Origin: Patescibacteria group bacterium
GTDB taxonomy: Bacteria > Patescibacteriota > Patescibacteriia > UBA9934 > GWF2-40-263
Reading direction: 5' to 3'
Length of the DNA: 64,000 nt
Assembly (NCBI GenBank): GCA_041661745.1
Contig: JBAZTR010000001.1
Span: forward strand, 186,471 to 250,470
How positions within the stretch are numbered: the first letter of the stretch is position 1; every line of letters begins with the position of its first letter. The notes beneath the pieces are model-generated. The model made no database searches. It saw only the letters and a program-made list of their open reading frames with translations, and was not told the origin of the DNA. Below, one piece after another: positions 150 through 63,339 of the stretch. Position numbers and translations under genes: made by a program.

Positions 150-557
150 GTGAATGAAAGAAGACACTTCCACGTCCTTGTGGTCGAAGACGAAATTGCC
201 GTGAGACTGGTCATCGGTCGGTTCGTCCAGGCCGCGCTCAAGGGGCAAGTCAAGGTCAGCCTGGCCGACGGTTTAGTCGAGGCTGGGCGGCTTGACCTGA
301 AAGACGTCGACCTGATCATCTGCGACATGACCCTCGGCTACAACGAGAACGGTTTCGATCTGCTGCGCCACATGCGGGCCGCTGGCATCGAAACACCGTT
401 CATGCTCATGACCGGCTACTCACCGGAACGAGTGGCCGAAAACATGCGGCCCGGGGAGAAGTTCTCCAACTTCAACCTCATCTACAAGCCGCTCAAGAGC
501 ATCGCCGACTTCCGCGAGAAACTCGAAGCAGCTCTCGCCCTCACCGCGCTTTCCTAG
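150..557 (+). CDS. stand-alone response-regulator receiver (REC/CheY-like) protein, high-GC ORF
   Basis: The 135-aa product contains VLVVEDE...LIICDMTLGY...LMTGY and a K in YKPLK, matching the receiver fold. It has a GTG start after GGAGG. The ORF GC is well above flanking DNA. Confidence 0.65.
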   Translation: MNERRHFHVLVVEDEIAVRLVIGRFVQAALKGQVKVSLADGLVEAGRLDLKDVDLIICDMTLGYNENGFDLLRHMRAAGIETPFMLMTGYSPERVAENMRPGEKFSNFNLIYKPLKSIADFREKLEAALALTALS

Positions 558-26079: not shown

Positions 26080-26617
26080 AACGCACCTATTATGGAGTTT
26101 TGTGAAGAAAAAAGCAAGAATCGTTTCTTTCCTCTTCCCCTCTATCCCCCTCTCCAGAGGAGAGGGGGAAGTTTCGCCCCGTGTCTCCGCTCCTCGGACA
26201 GCTAACCGCCTTCAGCGGCCTGGCTCGCTAACTCGCTGGCCAACTGCGCCGAGTAAGTGGCACTCACCCCTCGGCTTGTTGGCTGCACTCGAACAGAGGC
26301 TCGCCTTCCGACCTACGGAACCGGCCGCTTCAGCCGGGCTGTCCTCCGGGGCTCGACGCGGGGCGGTCTTTTTTGAAACACCTAACCCACCCTTTAGTTC
26401 GCGCATGAGACCGTTGTTAGTAAACACGAAAAGGTAGCCGATTGCTTTATCTTCTTGAAGTATCGTGCAAAGGCGATGTTTAAGAGAACCACCAAGAGGA
26501 GAAAAGAAAAGCTTGGGCGACGAACAAAGGGTGGTTTAAAAAAGCCCTTTCTTTTCCCACTTTTCTTTGGGCTAGCAAAGAAAAGTGGAAGAGGAAGAAG
26601 ATTAAAGAGAATCTAAA

Positions 26618-26660: not shown

Positions 26661-27005
26661 TTATACCTTATCTGGTCGTGGTTCGTGTTTTCCATCAACT
26701 AATCTATCTTTGAAATCCACCACCTGCCGACGCAAATCATCTTTCATCAAATCAACAGCTTCATATAAATCTTCGGCTTCAGTACGGGCGCGAAGAACCA
26801 CACCTGGCACGGTCAAATTGGCTTCAGCAAAAAAGAATGGACCTTTAGCATGATGCTCGGAAGTTTTACCAATTTCAAGCGACACTTCCGGTTCCGGTCG
26901 AAAATCAACGGTTAGTTTTTCCAAAGACAGCAACTTTTCTTCAACGTAGCTCTTAATAGCCTCGGTCATTTCCATATTGGTCGCCTTGTTCGAAACGATT
27001 CTCAT
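26661..27005 (-). CDS. hpf: ribosome hibernation-promoting factor (HPF/RaiA, short form)
   Basis: The 114-aa product has the N-terminus MEMTEAIKSYVEEKL typical of HPF/YfiA. Its position upstream of secA matches the conserved hpf-secA pairing. Confidence 0.75.
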   Translation of the reverse strand: MRIVSNKATNMEMTEAIKSYVEEKLLSLEKLTVDFRPEPEVSLEIGKTSEHHAKGPFFFAEANLTVPGVVLRARTEAEDLYEAVDLMKDDLRRQVVDFKDRLVDGKHEPRPDKV

Positions 27006-36680: not shown

Positions 36681-37757
36681 CTAGCGGTGGCCGGGGGCGG
36701 CGACGATCCCGTTGATCGGAGCGGGCGGAGCGAGTCCCTCCTCGATCGAGTTGGCCACCATAGTAAGTCTGCCGGCGATCAAGGCAGCAGCCAGGAGGAT
36801 CGCCAGGACCACGCTCCCGATGACCGCCGGAACCACCCACGGCTTCATGGGGGCCGGCGGGACGGCCGGGGCAGGAGGCTCGGGCGGCGGGGGCGGCTTG
36901 GCCATGTGCGGCGTCAGCTGGTCGACCACCTCCTTAACGGCCTTGCCGACCATCTCGCCATTCCGGATCATCAGGTCGCCGACGATCTTCGGATCAACGC
37001 CGGGCGGGATCGCGATGACCGGAGCGGCGACTCGCGAGGCCGAGCCCGCGGGCGGGGTCGAGCTGCGCGGAGGAGGCGACGGCGGCGGGGCGGCGACCTT
37101 GGTCTTGAACGTGAAGGCGTCCGCCAGGAAGACGGACTCGCCACCGTTGTTCTTGACCTCGACGCTCGCCACTCCGACCGGGAAGGCGGGAGTCTTGGCC
37201 AGGATCTTGGTGTCGGACACGAACCGGATGTCCGTGCCGACGACCTTGGTCGCGGGCGTGAAGAAGAACACCTGGCAGTCGGCCGTGAAGCCGCTGCCGG
37301 TCACCTCGACCTCGAGGCCACCAGTCTCCTCGCCCTCGGTGGGCGTGATGGAGGTGACGGCGAGAACGGGAGGCGGTGGGGGCGGAGGCGGCGGTGGGCT
37401 GCTGATCGCGACGACCCAGCCGACCGCTCGGGCGTGGGCGAGCGCCCGATCCTTGAAGTCGGGCCGCCAGTCCCGGATGGCCTCGAGCTCGGTCATGATC
37501 TCGGCCTCGGAGCGGTTGGCCGAAGCCACGACCAGCTCCTCGACCTTGCAGATGATGTCGATGACCGTGGTGTCATCGTTGCCCAGCGCGGCCGCTTTCG
37601 TGAACTTGTCCGCGACATCGACCGAGACGTTGTCCCACTCGGTGAACTTCCAGGCCATGAGCGAGCTGAAGTCGCCGGCCGGGCTGGGGGCAGACCAGAT
37701 GGCCACGGCCGCATGGAACGCGGCCTGCTGTTCTGGGGTGAGGGTAGTGATGTCCAT
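36681..37757 (-). CDS. high-GC surface-type protein with an IPT/TIG-like Ig domain, poly-Pro linkers and a C-terminal TM anchor
   Basis: The 358-aa product has PPPPPPPPPP; an Ig-like segment VTSITPTEGEETGGLEVEVTGSGF...VFFF...IRFVSDTKILAKTP...VEVKNNGG..SV..D.FTF; and a C-terminal hydrophobic stretch AVIGSVVLAILLAAALIAG. GGAGA lies before the ATG. The long + strand ORFs here are Arg-rich antisense artefacts. Confidence 0.6.
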   Translation of the reverse strand: MDITTLTPEQQAAFHAAVAIWSAPSPAGDFSSLMAWKFTEWDNVSVDVADKFTKAAALGNDDTTVIDIICKVEELVVASANRSEAEIMTELEAIRDWRPDFKDRALAHARAVGWVVAISSPPPPPPPPPPVLAVTSITPTEGEETGGLEVEVTGSGFTADCQVFFFTPATKVVGTDIRFVSDTKILAKTPAFPVGVASVEVKNNGGESVFLADAFTFKTKVAAPPPSPPPRSSTPPAGSASRVAAPVIAIPPGVDPKIVGDLMIRNGEMVGKAVKEVVDQLTPHMAKPPPPPEPPAPAVPPAPMKPWVVPAVIGSVVLAILLAAALIAGRLTMVANSIEEGLAPPAPINGIVAAPGHR

Positions 37758-38064: not shown

Positions 38065-39222
38065 ATGAGCGAGATCAACATCCTGGATCTCTGGGCAGCA
38101 ACCGGCATCATGGAGGCGCTCCTGCCCCTGATCCGAGAGGTCGACAAAAGGTTCGTCCCCGAGGACCACAACCTGACCTACAACCAGGTCGAGTGGAGCC
38201 GTCACGGCGACGGATGCATCGGAAGCATCATGCTCGTCGACGAGGACGGCAAGGATCAGGAGATCGCCTGCTACCCGATCTCGACCAGGTGGAACGTGGA
38301 CATCACCACCCCCCACATGGTACTGGCCTTCCAGGTCACCAGAAGCAACAACGAACCCGAAACCGAGGACGACCTGAGCGACGGTCGCTGGTACGCCATT
38401 CCGGTCGGTCTGGCACCAACCTCGATCCGGACCAAAGTCGAGAGGGCCTTCCAGGAAGTCGGCCTCCTCAACGGTCGTCTCCCCGGCCTCAAGCCGCACG
38501 AGTGGGACGACTCTCCGGAACGCCGGTTCAACCTGGTCTTCCAGCGCCGGCGCGGCGACATGATCGCCTGGTACCAGGGGAAGGTCTGCGTCCTGGTCGA
38601 AGGTTCGCCAATCCCCAAGCCCGGCAAGGAGGTCATCTGCGAAGTGGTGACCGAGCGCCTGAGCAAGGTCGTCGTCCGCTGGACGGGCATGACCGTCGAG
38701 CAGGCCAGGAAGAGGATCGACGAACAGCGACGCCTGGCCGGTCTCCGAAGCAGCATCCGCCGGGCCGCGCGCGTGGAGCGACCCGAGCTCAAGGATCCCG
38801 TGGCCGCCATGGGGCTCGAGCCGGACAAGCTGAGCGGCGGACGCCTCAACAGCGCCTACCGCCGGCTGCGCCAGCAGGTCCCGACGACCGAGGAGGAGGC
38901 CGGCGCCAACCCGCTGGCCAAGGCCATGGTCGAAGTCGGCCTGCCCTTCCAGGCCGACAACCTAGACTGGCCGGTGTTCTACGCCGAGTACCTCGACCGG
39001 GCCGACCGGGCCGCGGTCCAGGTCCTCAAGGACAAGCGCACGAAGGAGCGCGAGGAGGCCGAACGCACGGCCACCCCGCCGCCCGTCGAGCCCGCCACCG
39101 AAGGCGAGGGCCACGAGGAAGCGGTCGCCGACCTCGACACCGCCGACGAAGACCTCCTGGTCGAGGAGTCGACCGACGACGGCTCCGCCCAGCCCCGCGA
39201 GGAGGGCGCGAACGCGAAGTAG
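38065..39222 (+). CDS. high-GC hypothetical protein (385 aa, acidic C-terminal tail)
   Basis: A long ORF with a strong RBS and its own promoter and terminator. No motif recognised. The C-terminus is Glu/Asp-rich. Confidence 0.55.
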   Translation: MSEINILDLWAATGIMEALLPLIREVDKRFVPEDHNLTYNQVEWSRHGDGCIGSIMLVDEDGKDQEIACYPISTRWNVDITTPHMVLAFQVTRSNNEPETEDDLSDGRWYAIPVGLAPTSIRTKVERAFQEVGLLNGRLPGLKPHEWDDSPERRFNLVFQRRRGDMIAWYQGKVCVLVEGSPIPKPGKEVICEVVTERLSKVVVRWTGMTVEQARKRIDEQRRLAGLRSSIRRAARVERPELKDPVAAMGLEPDKLSGGRLNSAYRRLRQQVPTTEEEAGANPLAKAMVEVGLPFQADNLDWPVFYAEYLDRADRAAVQVLKDKRTKEREEAERTATPPPVEPATEGEGHEEAVADLDTADEDLLVEESTDDGSAQPREEGANAK

Positions 39223-46457: not shown

Positions 46458-47087
46458 ATGCTCATGCTTCTCGCCATCACCATCAGTGCCCTCGCGGGTA
46501 CCTACCACGTGAACTTCCCGATCGTCAGCGGAGCTCCGACCAATCCGCTCGATGACGTCTTCGTCCTCACGGTCTCGGCGTGGGACCTCGACCAGAACCA
46601 GCAGAACGGGATCTACGACTCGAGCTGGCGCTTCATCAAGTGCGAGGCCAAGGACGGCGACCTCTACGTCCACTTCACCGGGAAGAAGACGGACTGGCCG
46701 ACCAGCTGGCCCCAGCAGGTCACCTGCTCGGGCTATGGCAACACCCTGGTCGTACACCCGGTGTCTCCGAGTGTGTACGAGCCGAGCATGATCGAGATCA
46801 CCGGCGACGACGAGATCTACTTCACGATGGCCACGGGGATCACCAAGCTCCGGACCATCAAGATCCCGGACGGCGACTACGACGTCGAGAGCTGCTTCGC
46901 GGCCCACGACGACAACGACGATCTGTGGAGCGGCGTCACCTGTGACCCGATCGCGAGCGACGACGACAACTTCGTGCGCGTCTACATCACCGGCGATGCG
47001 GCCGCGGGAACCGGAACCTGCGTCATCCCGGGGTTCAACAACACCCCGGACCTGACCATCACCATCAACCTCGACGGGCGTCCCTAG
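46458..47087 (+). CDS. secreted hypothetical protein, high GC, immediately after the Cys-rich peptide
   Basis: The 209-aa product has an N-terminal hydrophobic signal MLMLLAITISALAG. It starts 14 nt after the previous gene behind GGAGGA. No motif recognised. Confidence 0.5.
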   Translation: MLMLLAITISALAGTYHVNFPIVSGAPTNPLDDVFVLTVSAWDLDQNQQNGIYDSSWRFIKCEAKDGDLYVHFTGKKTDWPTSWPQQVTCSGYGNTLVVHPVSPSVYEPSMIEITGDDEIYFTMATGITKLRTIKIPDGDYDVESCFAAHDDNDDLWSGVTCDPIASDDDNFVRVYITGDAAAGTGTCVIPGFNNTPDLTITINLDGRP

Positions 47088-59992: not shown

Positions 59993-60077
59993 TAGGACAC
60001 TAGGAGGGTAGGAGACTAGGAAGCTAGGCAGATGTAAGTTCAAGACTAGTTTCCTAGCCTCCTAGTTTCCTAGCCTC
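59993..60077. repeat. family-2 heptad repeats (CTAGGAGG/CTAGGAAACTAG) as an inverted pair; the right arm encodes the last 7 codons of uvrB
   Basis: CTAGGAGGGTAGGAGACTAGGAAGCTAGGCAG ... ACTAGTTTCCTAGCCTCCTAGTTTCCTAGCCTCC. The UvrB C-terminus KEARKLGG is read from the repeat. Confidence 0.65.
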
Positions 60078-62045
60078 CTTTAACTGTTTCTTTAACAACA
60101 CAATTTCATCACGAACAATCGCCGCGGTTTCAAAATCTAAATCAAAAGCTGCCTGGCGCATTTCTTTTTCTTTTTCGCGAATCACTTCTTCGATTTCGTG
60201 TGGCTCGGCCGTTAATTCCAATTTCAGAATATCTTTTACTTCCTGTTCTTGTTCGCCGAACATGGCGCGGATGTCACCAATCTTTTTATGAATGGTTTGC
60301 GGAGTAATGCCGTGCTTTTCGTTGTAAGCCAATTGAATGGCCCGACGGCGATTAGTTTCTTTCATGGCACGCTCGAGTGAACCGGTCACTTCATCAGCGT
60401 ACAAAATAACTTTTCCTTCGACATTGCGAGCCGCCCGACCAATAGTTTGAATAAGCGAAGTTTCGGAACGCAAGAAACCTTCCTTATCAGCATCAAGGAT
60501 GGCAACCAAGGTCACTTCAGGCAGATCAAGACCTTCGCGGAGCAAGTTCACGCCAACCAAAACATCATAATTACCTTTACGAAAATCAGTCAGGGTGGTG
60601 ATGCGATCAAGCGTTTCCACATCGGAGTGAAGATATTGCGTCTTAATTCCCTTTTCTGTTAAAAATTCTGAAAGATCTTCGGCCATCTTTTTGGTTAAGG
60701 TCGTTACCAAAACCCGCTCATGTTTTTCAGCGCGGACAACTATTTCTTTCATCAAGTCGTCAATCTGACCGGTGATGGCGCGAATTTCTACCTCTGGATC
60801 AATCAAACCAGTCGGACGGATGATTTGCTCAACCACCTGCGTACTGTGAGCGTTTTCAAACTTACCGGGGGTGGCACTAGTGAAAACAACTTGACCAATC
60901 TTTTTTTCAAATTCATCAAACTTCAACGGGCGATTGTCCTTGGCCGAAGGCAAACGGAAACCATGCTCAACCAAAATATTCTTGCGGGCACGGTCGCCTT
61001 CAAACATCCCGCCAATTTGCGGCACGGCCACATGTGATTCGTCGATAATCAACAAAAAATCTTTTGGAAAATAATCAAGCAAAGTATATGGTGGTTCGCC
61101 AGGCGAGCGACCGTCAAAATGACGCGAATAGTTTTCAATGCCGTTGCAATAACCAACTTCCTCAATCATTTCCAAATCATAGCGCGTGCGACGCGACAAA
61201 CGTTCAACTTCCAAAGGTTTTCCTTCTTTTTCCAATTCGGCCAAACGATCAGCCAATTCTTTTTTAATTTGTTTCAAAGCTGTTTCCTTTCCTTCGGGCG
61301 AAACCACATAGTGCTTGGCCGGAAAAAGCCAAACTTCTTTTGATTCTTCCAAAAGTCGGCGGGTAACATGATCCAAAATTTCGATTCCGGTCAAAGTTTC
61401 GTCATCACCAAAATGAAGACGATAAATTTTTTCCTCATTAATCGGCATGATCTCCACCACATTGCCACGGGCCCGAAAGGAACCGCGAGTTAAATCGGAA
61501 TTGGTCCGCTCAAACTGCATATCGATCAGATGGCGCAACAATTCATCACGACCGGTATTTTTTCCAACCACCACGTGCAAAACCGTCTTTTTATATTCCA
61601 CCGGCGAACCCAAACCATAAATACAAGAAACCGAGGAGACAACAATCACATCTTGTCGCGAAAGCAACGACTGCGTGGCCGCATGGCGCAAACGATCAAT
61701 CTCTTGGTTAATCATGGCTTCTTTTTCAATATAAGTATCAGTACGCGGCAAATACGCTTCCGGCTGATAGTAATCGTAGTAGCTGACAAAATATTCCACG
61801 GCATTTTCCGGAAAAAATTCGCGGAACTCGTTGCACAGCTGGGCAGCCAGGGTTTTGTTTGGCGCAATAATCAAAGTCGGCTTCTGAACCTTTTGAATAA
61901 CATTGGCCATGGTAAAAGTTTTACCCGAACCAGTGACGCCAAGGAGGGTTTGAAACTTTTCGCCATTTTCAAGACCGGCGATTAATTTCTTAATCGCCTC
62001 GGGCTGGTCGCCGGCGGGTTGGTATGGCGCTTTGAGTTTAAACAT
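60054..62045 (-). CDS. uvrB: excinuclease ABC subunit B
   Basis: The product has [18 protein letters not shown], the helicase motifs [10 protein letters not shown] and DESH, and a C-terminal UVR domain. The start was moved to the ATG at 62045. The ORF track's TTG at 62081 lies in a hairpin repeat. Confidence 0.95.
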
Positions 62046-62050
62046 ATTTT

Positions 62051-62160
62051 TAGTATCTCCCCCTATCCCCCTCTTTAGCAAAGAGGGGGCAAAACTATTT
62101 CTCCCTCCCTTTACTAAAGGGAGGGGTGGGGAGAGATTTTAAATTAACACACAAATCCCC
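62051..62160. repeat. pair of G/C-rich hairpins (CCCCCTC-TTTAGCAAAG-AGGGGG; CTCCCTCCC-TTTACTAAAG-GGAGGGG) of the family-3 type
   Basis: They have the same CCCCTC/GAGGGG flavour as the DUF559-element TIRs and the hairpin at 26137-26175. Confidence 0.55.
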
Positions 62161-62308
62161 CACAAGAGCGGTCACTCTAGGGGGTAATAAGATAAGTTGT
62201 GATTAGAATTTAACAGAAAACACGGCAATTGGCAAGATTATTGACTTTTGGGAAATGCTGGGCTAAATTAATCGGTCCGCGAATACCTCGCGGCTTCTGG
62301 AGGCTCCC

Positions 62309-62602
62309 GTGTCCGAGACTCGTCCGTATCACGAAACCCTTCCGGGGTTGATCCGTTCCGTTGAAACGAGCGACTCCGCCATCTCGCTCGCGGCGTTCAT
62401 CGTCGAGACCACCCTCCCCGGCAACTTCGACAAGGTGGCCGAAGCCTGGCGCAATCTCATGACCAGCCTGGACTTCAAGGACGTCAACGAGTTCGGCGTC
62501 CTCGACTTCGTCGAGGAGCAGCGGAAGGTGGCCGAGGAGAAGGCCAAGAACCCCGAGCGCCTGCGCGAGATCTTCGACGTCGGCTCTGGACACGGGTGCT
62601 AA
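62309..62602 (+). CDS. high-GC small protein, paralog A (97 aa), GTG start
   Basis: MSETRPYHETLPGLI... It has a GGAGG RBS, a conserved upstream hairpin CCGCGAATACCTCGCGG and a weak terminator. It is homologous to the N-terminal 95 aa of the next gene. Confidence 0.55.
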   Translation: MSETRPYHETLPGLIRSVETSDSAISLAAFIVETTLPGNFDKVAEAWRNLMTSLDFKDVNEFGVLDFVEEQRKVAEEKAKNPERLREIFDVGSGHGC

Positions 62603-62749
62603 CTACCCTTCTCGCTTCGACTTTCACCACAAGGTGGAGGTCTTTTTTTATTTAGGAATTAAAACATTTTTAAAACCATTGACGCCTAATTTCAAAAGTG
62701 TTAACTTGTTCTGTCCGCAAATACCTTGCGGCTTCCAGAGGAGGCTTCC

Positions 62750-63238
62750 ATGCTCGAGACCCGCCCGTACCACAAATCCCTTCCCTGGCTGATCCAGTAT
62801 TCCGAAGGGACGATCGACTCCACCGTCTCGCTCGGAACGTTCATCCGCCACACCACCCTGCCCGACAACTTCGACGAGGTGGCCGAGGCCTGGAGCAACC
62901 GCCTGCGCGACCAAGGTCTCGACGACACCGAGTTCGGAGTCCTCGCCTTCATCGAGGAGCAGCGGAAGGTGGCCGAGGACAAGAAGAGGCAGCAGCTCCT
63001 GGACACCAAGCTCGAGGACCTCCACAAGTCGCCGGTCCTCAGCACGAGCCACCGGGTCGACCTCGGAATCAAGACCTTGGGTGGCATCGTGGCGAGGACC
63101 GAAGCCGAACTCCTCGAGATCTACGGCCGGGAGTCCTTCGACATGATCATGGACGAGCTCCGCTCGCTCGGCCTCGAGCCGCGCAAGCCCGAGCGCCGGC
63201 GCGAGCTCTTCGACACCGAGTTCGCCCACGACTCCTAG
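62750..63238 (+). CDS. high-GC small protein, paralog B (163 aa) with a C-terminal RNAP alpha-CTD-like helix-hairpin-helix
   Basis: MLETRPYHKSLPWLI... It has a GAGGAGG RBS. The C-terminus LSTSHRVDLGIKTLGGIVARTEAELLEIYGRESFDMIMDELRSLGL resembles the RpoA alpha-CTD. The terminator has a UUCG tetraloop hairpin plus T-run (63266-63295). Confidence 0.55.
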   Translation: MLETRPYHKSLPWLIQYSEGTIDSTVSLGTFIRHTTLPDNFDEVAEAWSNRLRDQGLDDTEFGVLAFIEEQRKVAEDKKRQQLLDTKLEDLHKSPVLSTSHRVDLGIKTLGGIVARTEAELLEIYGRESFDMIMDELRSLGLEPRKPERRRELFDTEFAHDS

Positions 63239-63339
63239 CCGCCCCTCGCGGCAACGTCACGACCCCCACTTCGGTGGAGGTCTTTTTAAATCAAAACCCC
63301 GCCTGCCATGCATATAAAATGCACTGAGCGGCGGGGTAT

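Follow-up and report, generated by a model that had tools for sequence, protein, structure and literature searches.

Two adjacent plus-strand genes, which we call A and B, lie in an interval bounded by two minus-strand genes, uvrB (60054-62045) and an ABC-transporter gene (from 63386), in a 64,000-nucleotide (nt) stretch of a Patescibacteria group bacterium (assembly GCA_041661745.1, contig JBAZTR010000001.1, positions 186,471 to 250,470). They pose the question of what two small hypothetical proteins, one of them carrying a segment that resembles the C-terminal domain (CTD) of the RNA polymerase (RNAP) alpha subunit, might do in such an organism. Throughout, the window denotes this whole 64-kb stretch, and the sequence-only reading is an earlier annotation, made from the DNA letters without database searches, that described the pair. 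Our preferred answer, in which we place about even confidence, is that A and B belong to a family of small helical proteins that are most likely transcription-associated adaptors, each expressed from an independent cassette. The two genes are laid out as follows.

62309-62602 (+): gene A, GTG start, 97 amino acids (aa); NCBI hypothetical protein WC702_01285
62309-62548 (+): gene A N-domain, in a gene without the alpha-CTD-like module
62552-62584 (+): gene A C-terminal tail motif PERLREIFDVG
62750-63238 (+): gene B, ATG start, 162 aa; NCBI hypothetical protein WC702_01290
62750-62989 (+): gene B N-domain (residues 1-80), a four-helix module in the AlphaFold model
62999-63178 (+): gene B alpha-CTD-like module (about residues 84-143), the segment missing from A
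63188-63223 (+): gene B C-terminal tail motif PERRRELFDTEF

Both genes are recorded at NCBI in a metagenome-assembled genome (MAG) of "Patescibacteria group bacterium." The sequence-only reading had presented them as tandem plus-strand paralogs of 97 and 163 aa with about 50% identity over 95 aa; the paralogy is borne out (BLASTP E=9e-30), as is the length of A, but B is 162 aa long and the identity is 59% across 82 aa. A second BLASTP match joins the extreme C-termini (PERLREIFD vs PERRRELFD), and the tail pattern R.R..FD.(G/E)F is common to A, B and their relatives P0028, P0048, P0051 and P0013 (P and L numbers designate proteins and loci of relatives). The idea that this tail is a clamp-binding or other known docking peptide was dropped, as its match to the motif QL[SD]LF is poor. 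At the DNA level the two genes align in three blocks of 71-90% identity, between which the spacing rises from 441-444 to 636 nt; this register shift of 195 nt implies that B holds 65 codons absent from A, with the tail retained in both. Read from this alignment, A is B minus the 65-codon alpha-CTD-like segment, tail kept. The two proteins are closer to each other (59%) than either is to the pair at the related locus L046 (24-41%), which fits a lineage-specific duplication followed by CTD deletion in A, or gene conversion; their nonsynonymous (dN) and synonymous (dS) divergences are 0.27 and 0.35.

A chimeric assembly was ruled out, since two independent Logan assemblies from different SRA runs reproduce the 1.5-2.1 kb round the locus with 100% identity and both open reading frames (ORFs) are called there. 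A tblastn search and a scan of all ORFs with the family hidden Markov model (HMM) recovered no family copies in the window besides A and B; a weak match at 26730-26813, within a 114-aa ORF (26661-27005), was treated as chance. Gene A also contains a 12-nt inverted repeat, 92% complementary, that joins its Shine-Dalgarno (SD)-start region (62303-62314) with its last codons (62588-62599); this could allow the ends of the mRNA to pair, or it could be chance.

The N-domain shared by the two proteins, about 78 aa long, defines, as judged from its sequence signature, an undescribed small-protein family that is nearly confined to MAGs of Patescibacteria (the candidate phyla radiation, CPR). A word-indexed search with B alone returned only B itself. 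An exhaustive HMMER search over 1.84 billion representatives with an A+B profile gave 59 matches at E<=1e-3, about 50 of which are proteins of 70-240 aa bearing the signature RP(F/Y)HE(T/S)..I, then T.(I/L)P.NHD.I..AW after about 20 residues and GV...L..QK..AE after about 15 more. A trimmed N-domain profile, again in a word-indexed search, yielded 78 proteins, all unnamed or "hypothetical" and none with a Pfam domain; their named sources are CPR MAGs throughout (Paceibacterota, Colwellbacteria, Patescibacteria group). The family numbers more than 100 small "hypothetical" proteins, and no description of it was found in the literature searched. A genome scan, with an alignment of 10 closer sequences as the query, located 25 family loci, nearly all from CPR classes (mostly Paceibacterota, Saccharibacteria-labelled bins, and Andersen-, Azam-, Vogel-, Staskawicz- and Berkelbacteria); a Bdellovibrionales or Gammaproteobacteria label is attached to two of the loci, and another three are named only as "bacterium." Tandem family pairs recur, in L009, L024, L030, L032 and L048.

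No match to the N-domain, whether to an enzyme family or otherwise, was found in Pfam, NCBIfam, PHROG, PADLOC or the PDB sequences, the one candidate relative (EF-G, E=0.13 with the N-domain profile against PDB sequences) being rejected as a chance match. AlphaFold predicts a four-helix module for the N-domain of B, with a predicted local distance difference test score (pLDDT) of 94-98 for residues 11-80 and 89 for residues 1-10, and Lys/Glu/Ala-rich tails come after the N-domain. Both A and B match the family profile over HMM positions 2-78 (E=2.9e-27 and 1.3e-24), scores that are partly circular because both sequences are in the seed alignment; independent support for their membership is that the A+B profile retrieves the family. 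Near-invariant residues of the family, in B numbering, are P6, H8, E9, T35, P38, H41, D42 and W48. Gene A encodes every one of them except H41, and B is without both H41, its motif reading NFD and not NHD, and E9, where HKS takes the place of HET.

The segment that distinguishes B from A is, to judge from profile comparisons, a degenerate homologue of the RNAP alpha CTD. B alone gives a sub-threshold match to Pfam PF03118 (E=0.023, 14.9 bits, profile positions 31-65 of 67) and, in a phmmer search, a match to PDB sequences at E=1e-3, with RNAP alpha in 20 of 22 matches; the top-ranked of these single-sequence matches come from actinobacteria, namely the alpha subunits of M. smegmatis, M. tuberculosis and Streptomyces. 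The NCBIfam rpoA models are matched weakly by B, P0012 and P0015, each alone (E=4.5e-4 to 4e-3, with B at 4.5e-4), in an alignment that begins at residue 68 of B and takes in the linker. A homologous C-module is present in at least seven family members (B, P0003, P0008, P0012, P0015, P0028 and P0048), and a profile of these seven modules retrieves 9zum_A from the PDB at E=9.9e-9, with profile positions 8-74 aligned to chain residues 8-75; RNAP alpha accounts for 42 of the 44 matches, and the whole CTD is covered. A CTD-only model of B (pLDDT 68) superposes on alpha-CTD at 2.0 Å over 58 residues, but the full-length model does not take up this fold of four compact helices with two helix-hairpin-helix motifs, so that structure lends the homology support short of proof. 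The RpoA N-terminal domain finds no match in B, in which residues 1-80 are the family N-domain.

The close resemblance to alpha-CTD claimed in the sequence-only reading is thus upheld as homology (family profile E=1e-8), but the key DNA-binding residues are not there. We take the DNA-binding "265 determinant" to comprise R265, N268, C269, G296, K298 and S299 in E. coli alpha numbering. In the HMMER alignment to alpha, B has L97, S100, H101 and E128 at the positions of R265, N268, C269 and K298, and it retains only the equivalents of G296 (G126) and S299 (S129). An Arg at the R265 position is found in none of the other family C-modules, and the second helix-hairpin-helix loop of B is 2 residues shorter than that of alpha. 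Conservation is highest in the RTE.ELL helix, and the module also retains its terminal GL motif. These features suggest that the module works through protein contacts, not by binding DNA in the canonical way. Among close relatives the CTD has been lost repeatedly (A, P0051 and, in part, P0010).

The alpha-CTD-like module is one among several unrelated C-modules to which the family N-domain is joined. A Fis-type helix-turn-helix (HTH) domain, HTH_8, is fused to it in L028 (2850-3290), with a score of 25.6 bits that clears the Pfam cut-off of 22, and other fused modules are recognized by the patterns "AYAVG..PPGL.DDG.FETPLGVRA" and "GKERVLM.VIE...KLFETAK" and by a helical "...LTSQALGK." By comparison with the proteins, the RNA at the 3' ends of family genes is strongly conserved: a family hairpin, GCGCACGACCUNCGGGUACGGCGC, which takes the form GCGCACGACCU(A/U)CGGGUACGGCGC followed by a U-run, is near-invariant after family genes in at least 10 genomes of different CPR classes, and the proteins encoded upstream of it share just 30-50% identity. 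This hairpin is nearly missing from the rest of the 333 kb examined, and it has no Rfam match.

Loci of fusions other than the alpha-CTD-like one, HTH_8 first: L028; L018, L026, L027; L017, L024; L015, L032
Sites of the family 3' hairpin: L010:3315, L013:3282, L015:3411, L017:3470, L019:3335, L020:3299, L022:3308, L032:3944, L033:3261, L012:541

A and B themselves are each flanked by a predicted set of expression signals, listed here in order along the plus strand, with terminator z-scores that compare folding against shuffled sequence.

62241-62269 (+): gene A promoter, sigma-70-like, with TTGACT, a 17-nt spacer and TAAATT, from a consensus scan
62277-62293 (+): gene A leader stem-loop, CCGCGA, loop AUACC, UCGCGG; predicted to span about +1 to +18 of the mRNA
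62299-62303 (+): gene A SD sequence GGAGG, 5 nt before the GTG start and outside the conserved hairpin
62619-62649 (+): gene A intrinsic terminator, 10-bp stem GACUUUCACC/GGUGGAGGUC, loop ACAA, U-run; z=-3.4
62679-62707 (+): gene B promoter-like site, with TTGACG, a 17-nt spacer and TGnTAACTT (extended -10), read from the sequence and alignment, the scanner being silent
62715-62731 (+): gene B leader stem-loop, CCGCAA, loop AUACC, UUGCGG, in which one G-C pair of the A stem is replaced by A-U, a compensatory change
62740-62744 (+): gene B SD sequence GGAGG
63261-63287 (+): gene B intrinsic terminator, GACCCCCAC, UUCG tetraloop, GUGGAGGUC, U-run; z=-4.6

The near-identity of the 5' leaders and of the terminators noted in the sequence-only reading is confirmed. 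The leader motif TCCGC[G/A]AATACCT[C/T]GCGGCTTC and the terminator arm GGTGGAGGTCTTTTT, the latter with zero mismatches, each have exactly two copies in the window, where about zero would be expected, and the leaders of A and B are 93% identical, compared with 78% for the coding DNA. A sequence near-identical to the terminator of A also lies 3' of the relative P0028 in L048. Both -10 elements end 7 nt upstream of the leader motif, a distance that would place the hairpin at about +1 of each predicted mRNA, and the TTGAC-N17-TAAnTT geometry recurs in relatives. In other genomes, P0015, P0010, P0028 and a 79-aa family gene have the same promoter-hairpin-SD layout ahead of them. Among 11 matches to the leader motif in JGI metagenome contigs, none stands ahead of an SD sequence and family ORF, and their number fits chance for 19 fixed bases.

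Conservation of the leader hairpin, which has a 6-bp stem and 5-nt loop in A and B, also holds in relatives: RNAalifold on six leaders recovers 7 consensus pairs, none broken, 2 of which show compensatory double changes (G-C to A-U and C-G to U-A), and the loop varies between 5 and 6 nt with at least four sequence variants. The claim that this hairpin occludes part of the SD is not sustained. The stem ends before the SD, which lies 5-8 nt downstream of it; the SD is unpaired in the six-leader consensus structure, and the predicted folds show no conserved sequestration of GGAGG. Whole-leader folding is no better than shuffled (z=-0.2 and +0.5), and the leader has no Rfam match. By analogy with leaders of the ompA and aprE type, we read this one as most likely a 5'-terminal stem-loop of the stabilizer type. 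A second type of leader is seen in another subclade (L012, L015 and L022), where compensatory changes mark a stem-loop, CCAC(R)A...(Y)GTGG, that lies about 30-60 nt upstream of the family start and is followed by ..AGTAC.TTG.AGGAG; 5' stem-loops appear to be general to family mRNAs.

How long the pair has been at this locus bears on its origin. The sequence-only reading had described a high-GC island, and the compositional excess is real: the G+C fraction at third codon positions (GC3) is 0.87 in A and 0.93 in B, compared with about 0.44 in uvrB, secA and the ABC gene. It is also enriched across the family, with GC3 above the host-ORF median in 35 of 41 family genes (median +0.17; Wilcoxon p=1e-6, for loci that are not phylogenetically independent). 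A recent foreign insertion, however, does not survive comparison with relatives. In the JGI metagenome locus L046, whose UvrB and ABC transporter are 78% and 77% identical to those of the window, the order is uvrB, a 79-aa family gene, a 426-aa gene, P0015 and the ABC transporter; both family genes are on the plus strand, and P0015, a 171-aa alpha-CTD-bearing protein, adjoins the ABC gene. In L049, P0010 holds the equivalent position beside the ABC gene. Synonymous sites of the flanks are saturated between the window and L046 (the NG86 dS of the ABC gene is 1.69, and uvrB yields no defined value), and the family genes of L046 and L049 have a GC3 of 0.80-0.85 in genomes of about 0.46. No flanking direct repeats, att-like sites, integrase or adjacent tRNA was found at the locus. 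Composition is therefore atypical, as in a recent island, yet family genes occupy the same locus in L046 and L049 and mobility signatures are missing. The pair is not a recent insertion and has resided at this locus for a long time; the family-wide GC3 excess together with the saturated flanks indicates that high GC3 is a maintained property of the family rather than a mark of recent import. It may be maintained by selection on mRNA or codons, by biased gene conversion or by frequent exchange among CPR lineages. The 426-aa gene (L046:3596-4876, minus; L049:2-1015, minus) has no Pfam match, and in the window A and B are directly adjacent instead.

Two accounts of where the genes came from deserve consideration beside this one. 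A recently acquired island from a high-GC donor, such as an actinobacterial host or its phage, with a composition that has not drifted, would explain the GC3 of 0.87-0.93 against 0.44 in the neighbours, the actinobacterial alpha subunits at the top of B's PDB matches and the presence of several more GC3-rich genes in the window. We regard it as the least probable of the explanations considered here, since the family's sources, where named, are Patescibacteria MAGs (a few loci have another taxon label or none), a short and a long family gene of equally high GC3 occupy the uvrB-ABC interval of a synonymously saturated relative, the GC3 excess spans many lineages of the family, flanking direct repeats, integrase and tRNA were not found, and the AT-rich promoters and terminators resemble those of the host; neither a close relative with an otherwise identical uvrB-ABC junction but without the genes, nor near-identical DNA in a high-GC genome outside the CPR, was found. 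Alternatively, the genes could be mobile "moron"-type cassettes of phage or mobile-element origin, for instance alpha-CTD mimics used in host takeover or anti-defence. Solitary genes with their own promoter and terminator, often in opposite orientation between unrelated housekeeping genes, would suit such an origin, as would a composition that departs from the host, fast protein evolution beside conserved non-coding ends, and the Fic and HTH_17 genes that neighbour P0003. It is nevertheless very unlikely, given that IMG/VR viral contigs yielded neither a family member nor the family 3' hairpin motif, that PHROG and PADLOC give no match, that the loci inspected showed neither an integrase nor any further phage gene, and that synteny is stable between the window and L046 and L049.

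Rival accounts of function meet similar difficulties. B might be a working alpha-CTD supplied in trans that binds UP-element-like AT-rich DNA, recruiting or replacing the polymerase's own; the homology and fold match to alpha-CTD and a long flexible or helical linker recalling the alpha inter-domain linker are what one would expect, but the replacement of R265, N268, C269 and K298 by Leu, Ser, His and Glu, the shorter second hairpin loop, the missing Arg in the other family C-modules and the repeated loss of the CTD make this highly doubtful. It is unlikely that the family is instead an abundant small protein associated with the nucleoid, RNA or the ribosome and not tied specifically to RNAP, its alpha-CTD-like and HTH modules serving as generic nucleic-acid binders, an account that would draw on the Lys/Glu/Ala-rich tails behind the N-domain, on a cassette that looks suited to high expression (5' hairpin, strong SD, strong terminator and GC3-rich codons) and on the lack of a conserved neighbourhood; it is countered by the N-domain, in which no nucleic-acid-binding fold was detected, and by the absence of the canonical DNA-contact residues from the CTD. 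For the leader, the alternative is a translational or transcriptional switch, working by an SD-hiding hairpin or alternative pairing, or by an operator palindrome at the transcription start. Leaders better conserved than the coding DNA, a loop and 3' arm whose CCUC or CCUU could in principle pair with the GAGG of the SD, and an inverted repeat overlapping the predicted +1 would all accommodate a switch. We consider it quite unlikely, because the six-relative consensus holds the 5' stem alone with the SD region unpaired, the whole leader folds no better than shuffled sequence, and Rfam gives no match; a loop that varies while the stem covaries is more in keeping with an RNA stem than with a spaced operator.

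Under the adaptor reading that we prefer, the N-domain would dock on some conserved partner in the cell, with the transcription machinery or promoter DNA complexes as the likeliest candidates, and the variable C-terminal modules would contribute added function; the pointer to a transcription role comes from the alpha-CTD-like and HTH fusions. B would consist of the N-domain, a long Lys/Glu-rich helix, the degenerate alpha-CTD and the short tail R.R..FD..F. Because the Arg265 and Lys298 equivalents are lost and the RTE.ELL helix is kept, we propose that its module acts through protein-protein contacts, in which case it would compete with or supplement the real alpha-CTD for its partners and would not act on UP-element DNA. 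A role for B as a decoy or modulator of transcription is plausible, and A could be a CTD-less variant that competes for the partner of the N-domain. Each gene would be expressed alone through a sigma-70-type promoter, 5' stem-loop, strong unpaired SD, GC3-rich ORF and intrinsic terminator, and the stem-loop would stabilize the 5' end of the mRNA rather than block the ribosome.

Several observations weigh against this interpretation. The 14.9 bits scored by B alone fall under the Pfam gathering cut-off of 23.8 bits, the CTD-only model has a pLDDT of just 68, and the full-length AlphaFold model shows the C-module as two long helices, not the alpha-CTD fold. Structural neighbours of the N-domain are generic helical bundles only, and the chief weak point is that nothing directly ties this domain to RNAP. 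The near-invariant His of the NHD motif is replaced by Phe in both A and B, which may signal a functional difference from typical members, and a dN/dS of about 0.77 between the two genes points to weak constraint or gene conversion. Across the family, most members are without a DNA- or RNAP-related module, the remaining C-modules are unrelated, and gene neighbourhoods are not conserved: family genes lie in such disparate settings as leuS-ychF, rpsO-tatD and dnaG-rpoD, or beside Fic (P0003, which also adjoins the HTH_17 gene) or an ECF sigma factor. The promoters, transcription starts and hairpin function are themselves predictions.

Comparison with known systems shows where the pair is familiar and where it departs. 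Like the RpoA CTD (PF03118), the module of B (about residues 84-143, aligned over the full domain) has the RTE.ELL helix and GL motif and follows a long linker; unlike it, B is without the alpha N-terminal assembly domain, has R265, N268, C269 and K298 replaced and a second hairpin 2 residues shorter, and carries a conserved extra tail, R.R..FD..F, after the domain. The A+B profile also retrieves proteins with multiple PF03118 domains (P0037, P0047 and P0057; matched at E=4e-5 to 7e-4 across the whole library, and Pfam-confirmed). These multi-alpha-CTD tetratricopeptide or repeat proteins, with 2-4 such domains, likewise reuse alpha-CTD modules outside the polymerase, but their repeats are canonical and high-scoring, with VRS.NCL motifs and no family N-domain, whereas B has a single degenerate copy on a CPR-specific domain. 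Bacterial mRNAs are known to bear 5' stabilizer stem-loops, such as the E. coli ompA hairpin and the B. subtilis aprE or ermC leaders, and the leaders of A and B resemble them in having a short GC-rich stem-loop near the predicted 5' end, a strong unpaired SD, a covarying stem and a free loop; they differ in that the 5' end in A and B is predicted from promoter geometry alone. Small lineage-restricted RNAP accessory proteins include delta (RpoE) of Firmicutes, RbpA and CarD of Actinobacteria, and the alpha-CTD-binding Spx. A and B share with these their small size, restriction to a lineage, helical character and, in some cases, charged tails, but no sequence or fold similarity to them was detected, and RNAP binding, by which those proteins dock on RNAP or alpha-CTD, is hypothetical for A and B.

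Three other features of the window were recorded. Four further genes are GC3-rich (0.78-0.92, where about 0.45 is typical of the genome), namely 36681-37757 (minus), 38065-39222 (plus), 46458-47087 (plus) and 150-557 (plus); all four have AT-rich DNA upstream and a terminator of their own, and one encodes a Pro-rich protein that looks membrane-anchored. Such GC3-rich orphan genes seem to be a feature of the genome as a whole, not peculiar to the A/B locus. Between secA and the 114-aa ORF at 26661-27005, which by sequence resembles a ribosome hibernation factor, 26168-26376 (plus) comprises 209 nt of 67% GC without a credible ORF that end in a hairpin and T-run, fold at -103 kcal/mol (z=-5.3 vs shuffles) and have no Rfam match; we consider it a candidate structured non-coding RNA. 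Finally, C/T-rich near-perfect hairpins lie just upstream of the minus-strand starts of uvrB and secA (62062-62135 and 26140-26172: CCCCCTCTTTAGCAAAGAGGGGG, CTCCCTCCCTTTACTAAAGGGAGGG, TCCCCCTCTCCAGAGGAGAGGGGGA) and possibly represent a regulatory or terminator element common to both genes.

The alpha-CTD fold and stand-alone or repeated alpha-CTD proteins are already known; the architecture, the N-domain family, the conserved RNA ends and the composition bias are new. A bolder proposal, which taken as a whole we think improbable, is that the family constitutes a Patescibacteria-specific transcription plug-in, in which a fast-evolving adaptor would sit on the polymerase or on a host-cell factor of these episymbionts and carry effector modules that can be exchanged, among them a Fis-type HTH and an alpha-CTD mimic that lacks the DNA-binding residues. 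This joint proposal would further hold that the cassettes are "hard-wired" by a 5' stabilizer hairpin and a family-specific 3' hairpin, that GC3 is actively kept high in AT-rich genomes by mRNA selection or by biased gene conversion among paralogs, and that B is a soluble alpha-CTD decoy titrating alpha-CTD-binding regulators. The family combines three unusual traits, in that its GC3 exceeds that of the host across diverged lineages, its RNA hairpins are more conserved than its proteins, and tandem duplication and loss of the C-module are recurrent. Patescibacteria have tiny genomes with few recognizable transcription regulators, and a widespread unannotated family of which some members carry an alpha-CTD-like or Fis-type module is a candidate for lineage-specific transcription control. 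If B does act as a decoy or surrogate, it would represent a new use of alpha-CTD outside RpoA.

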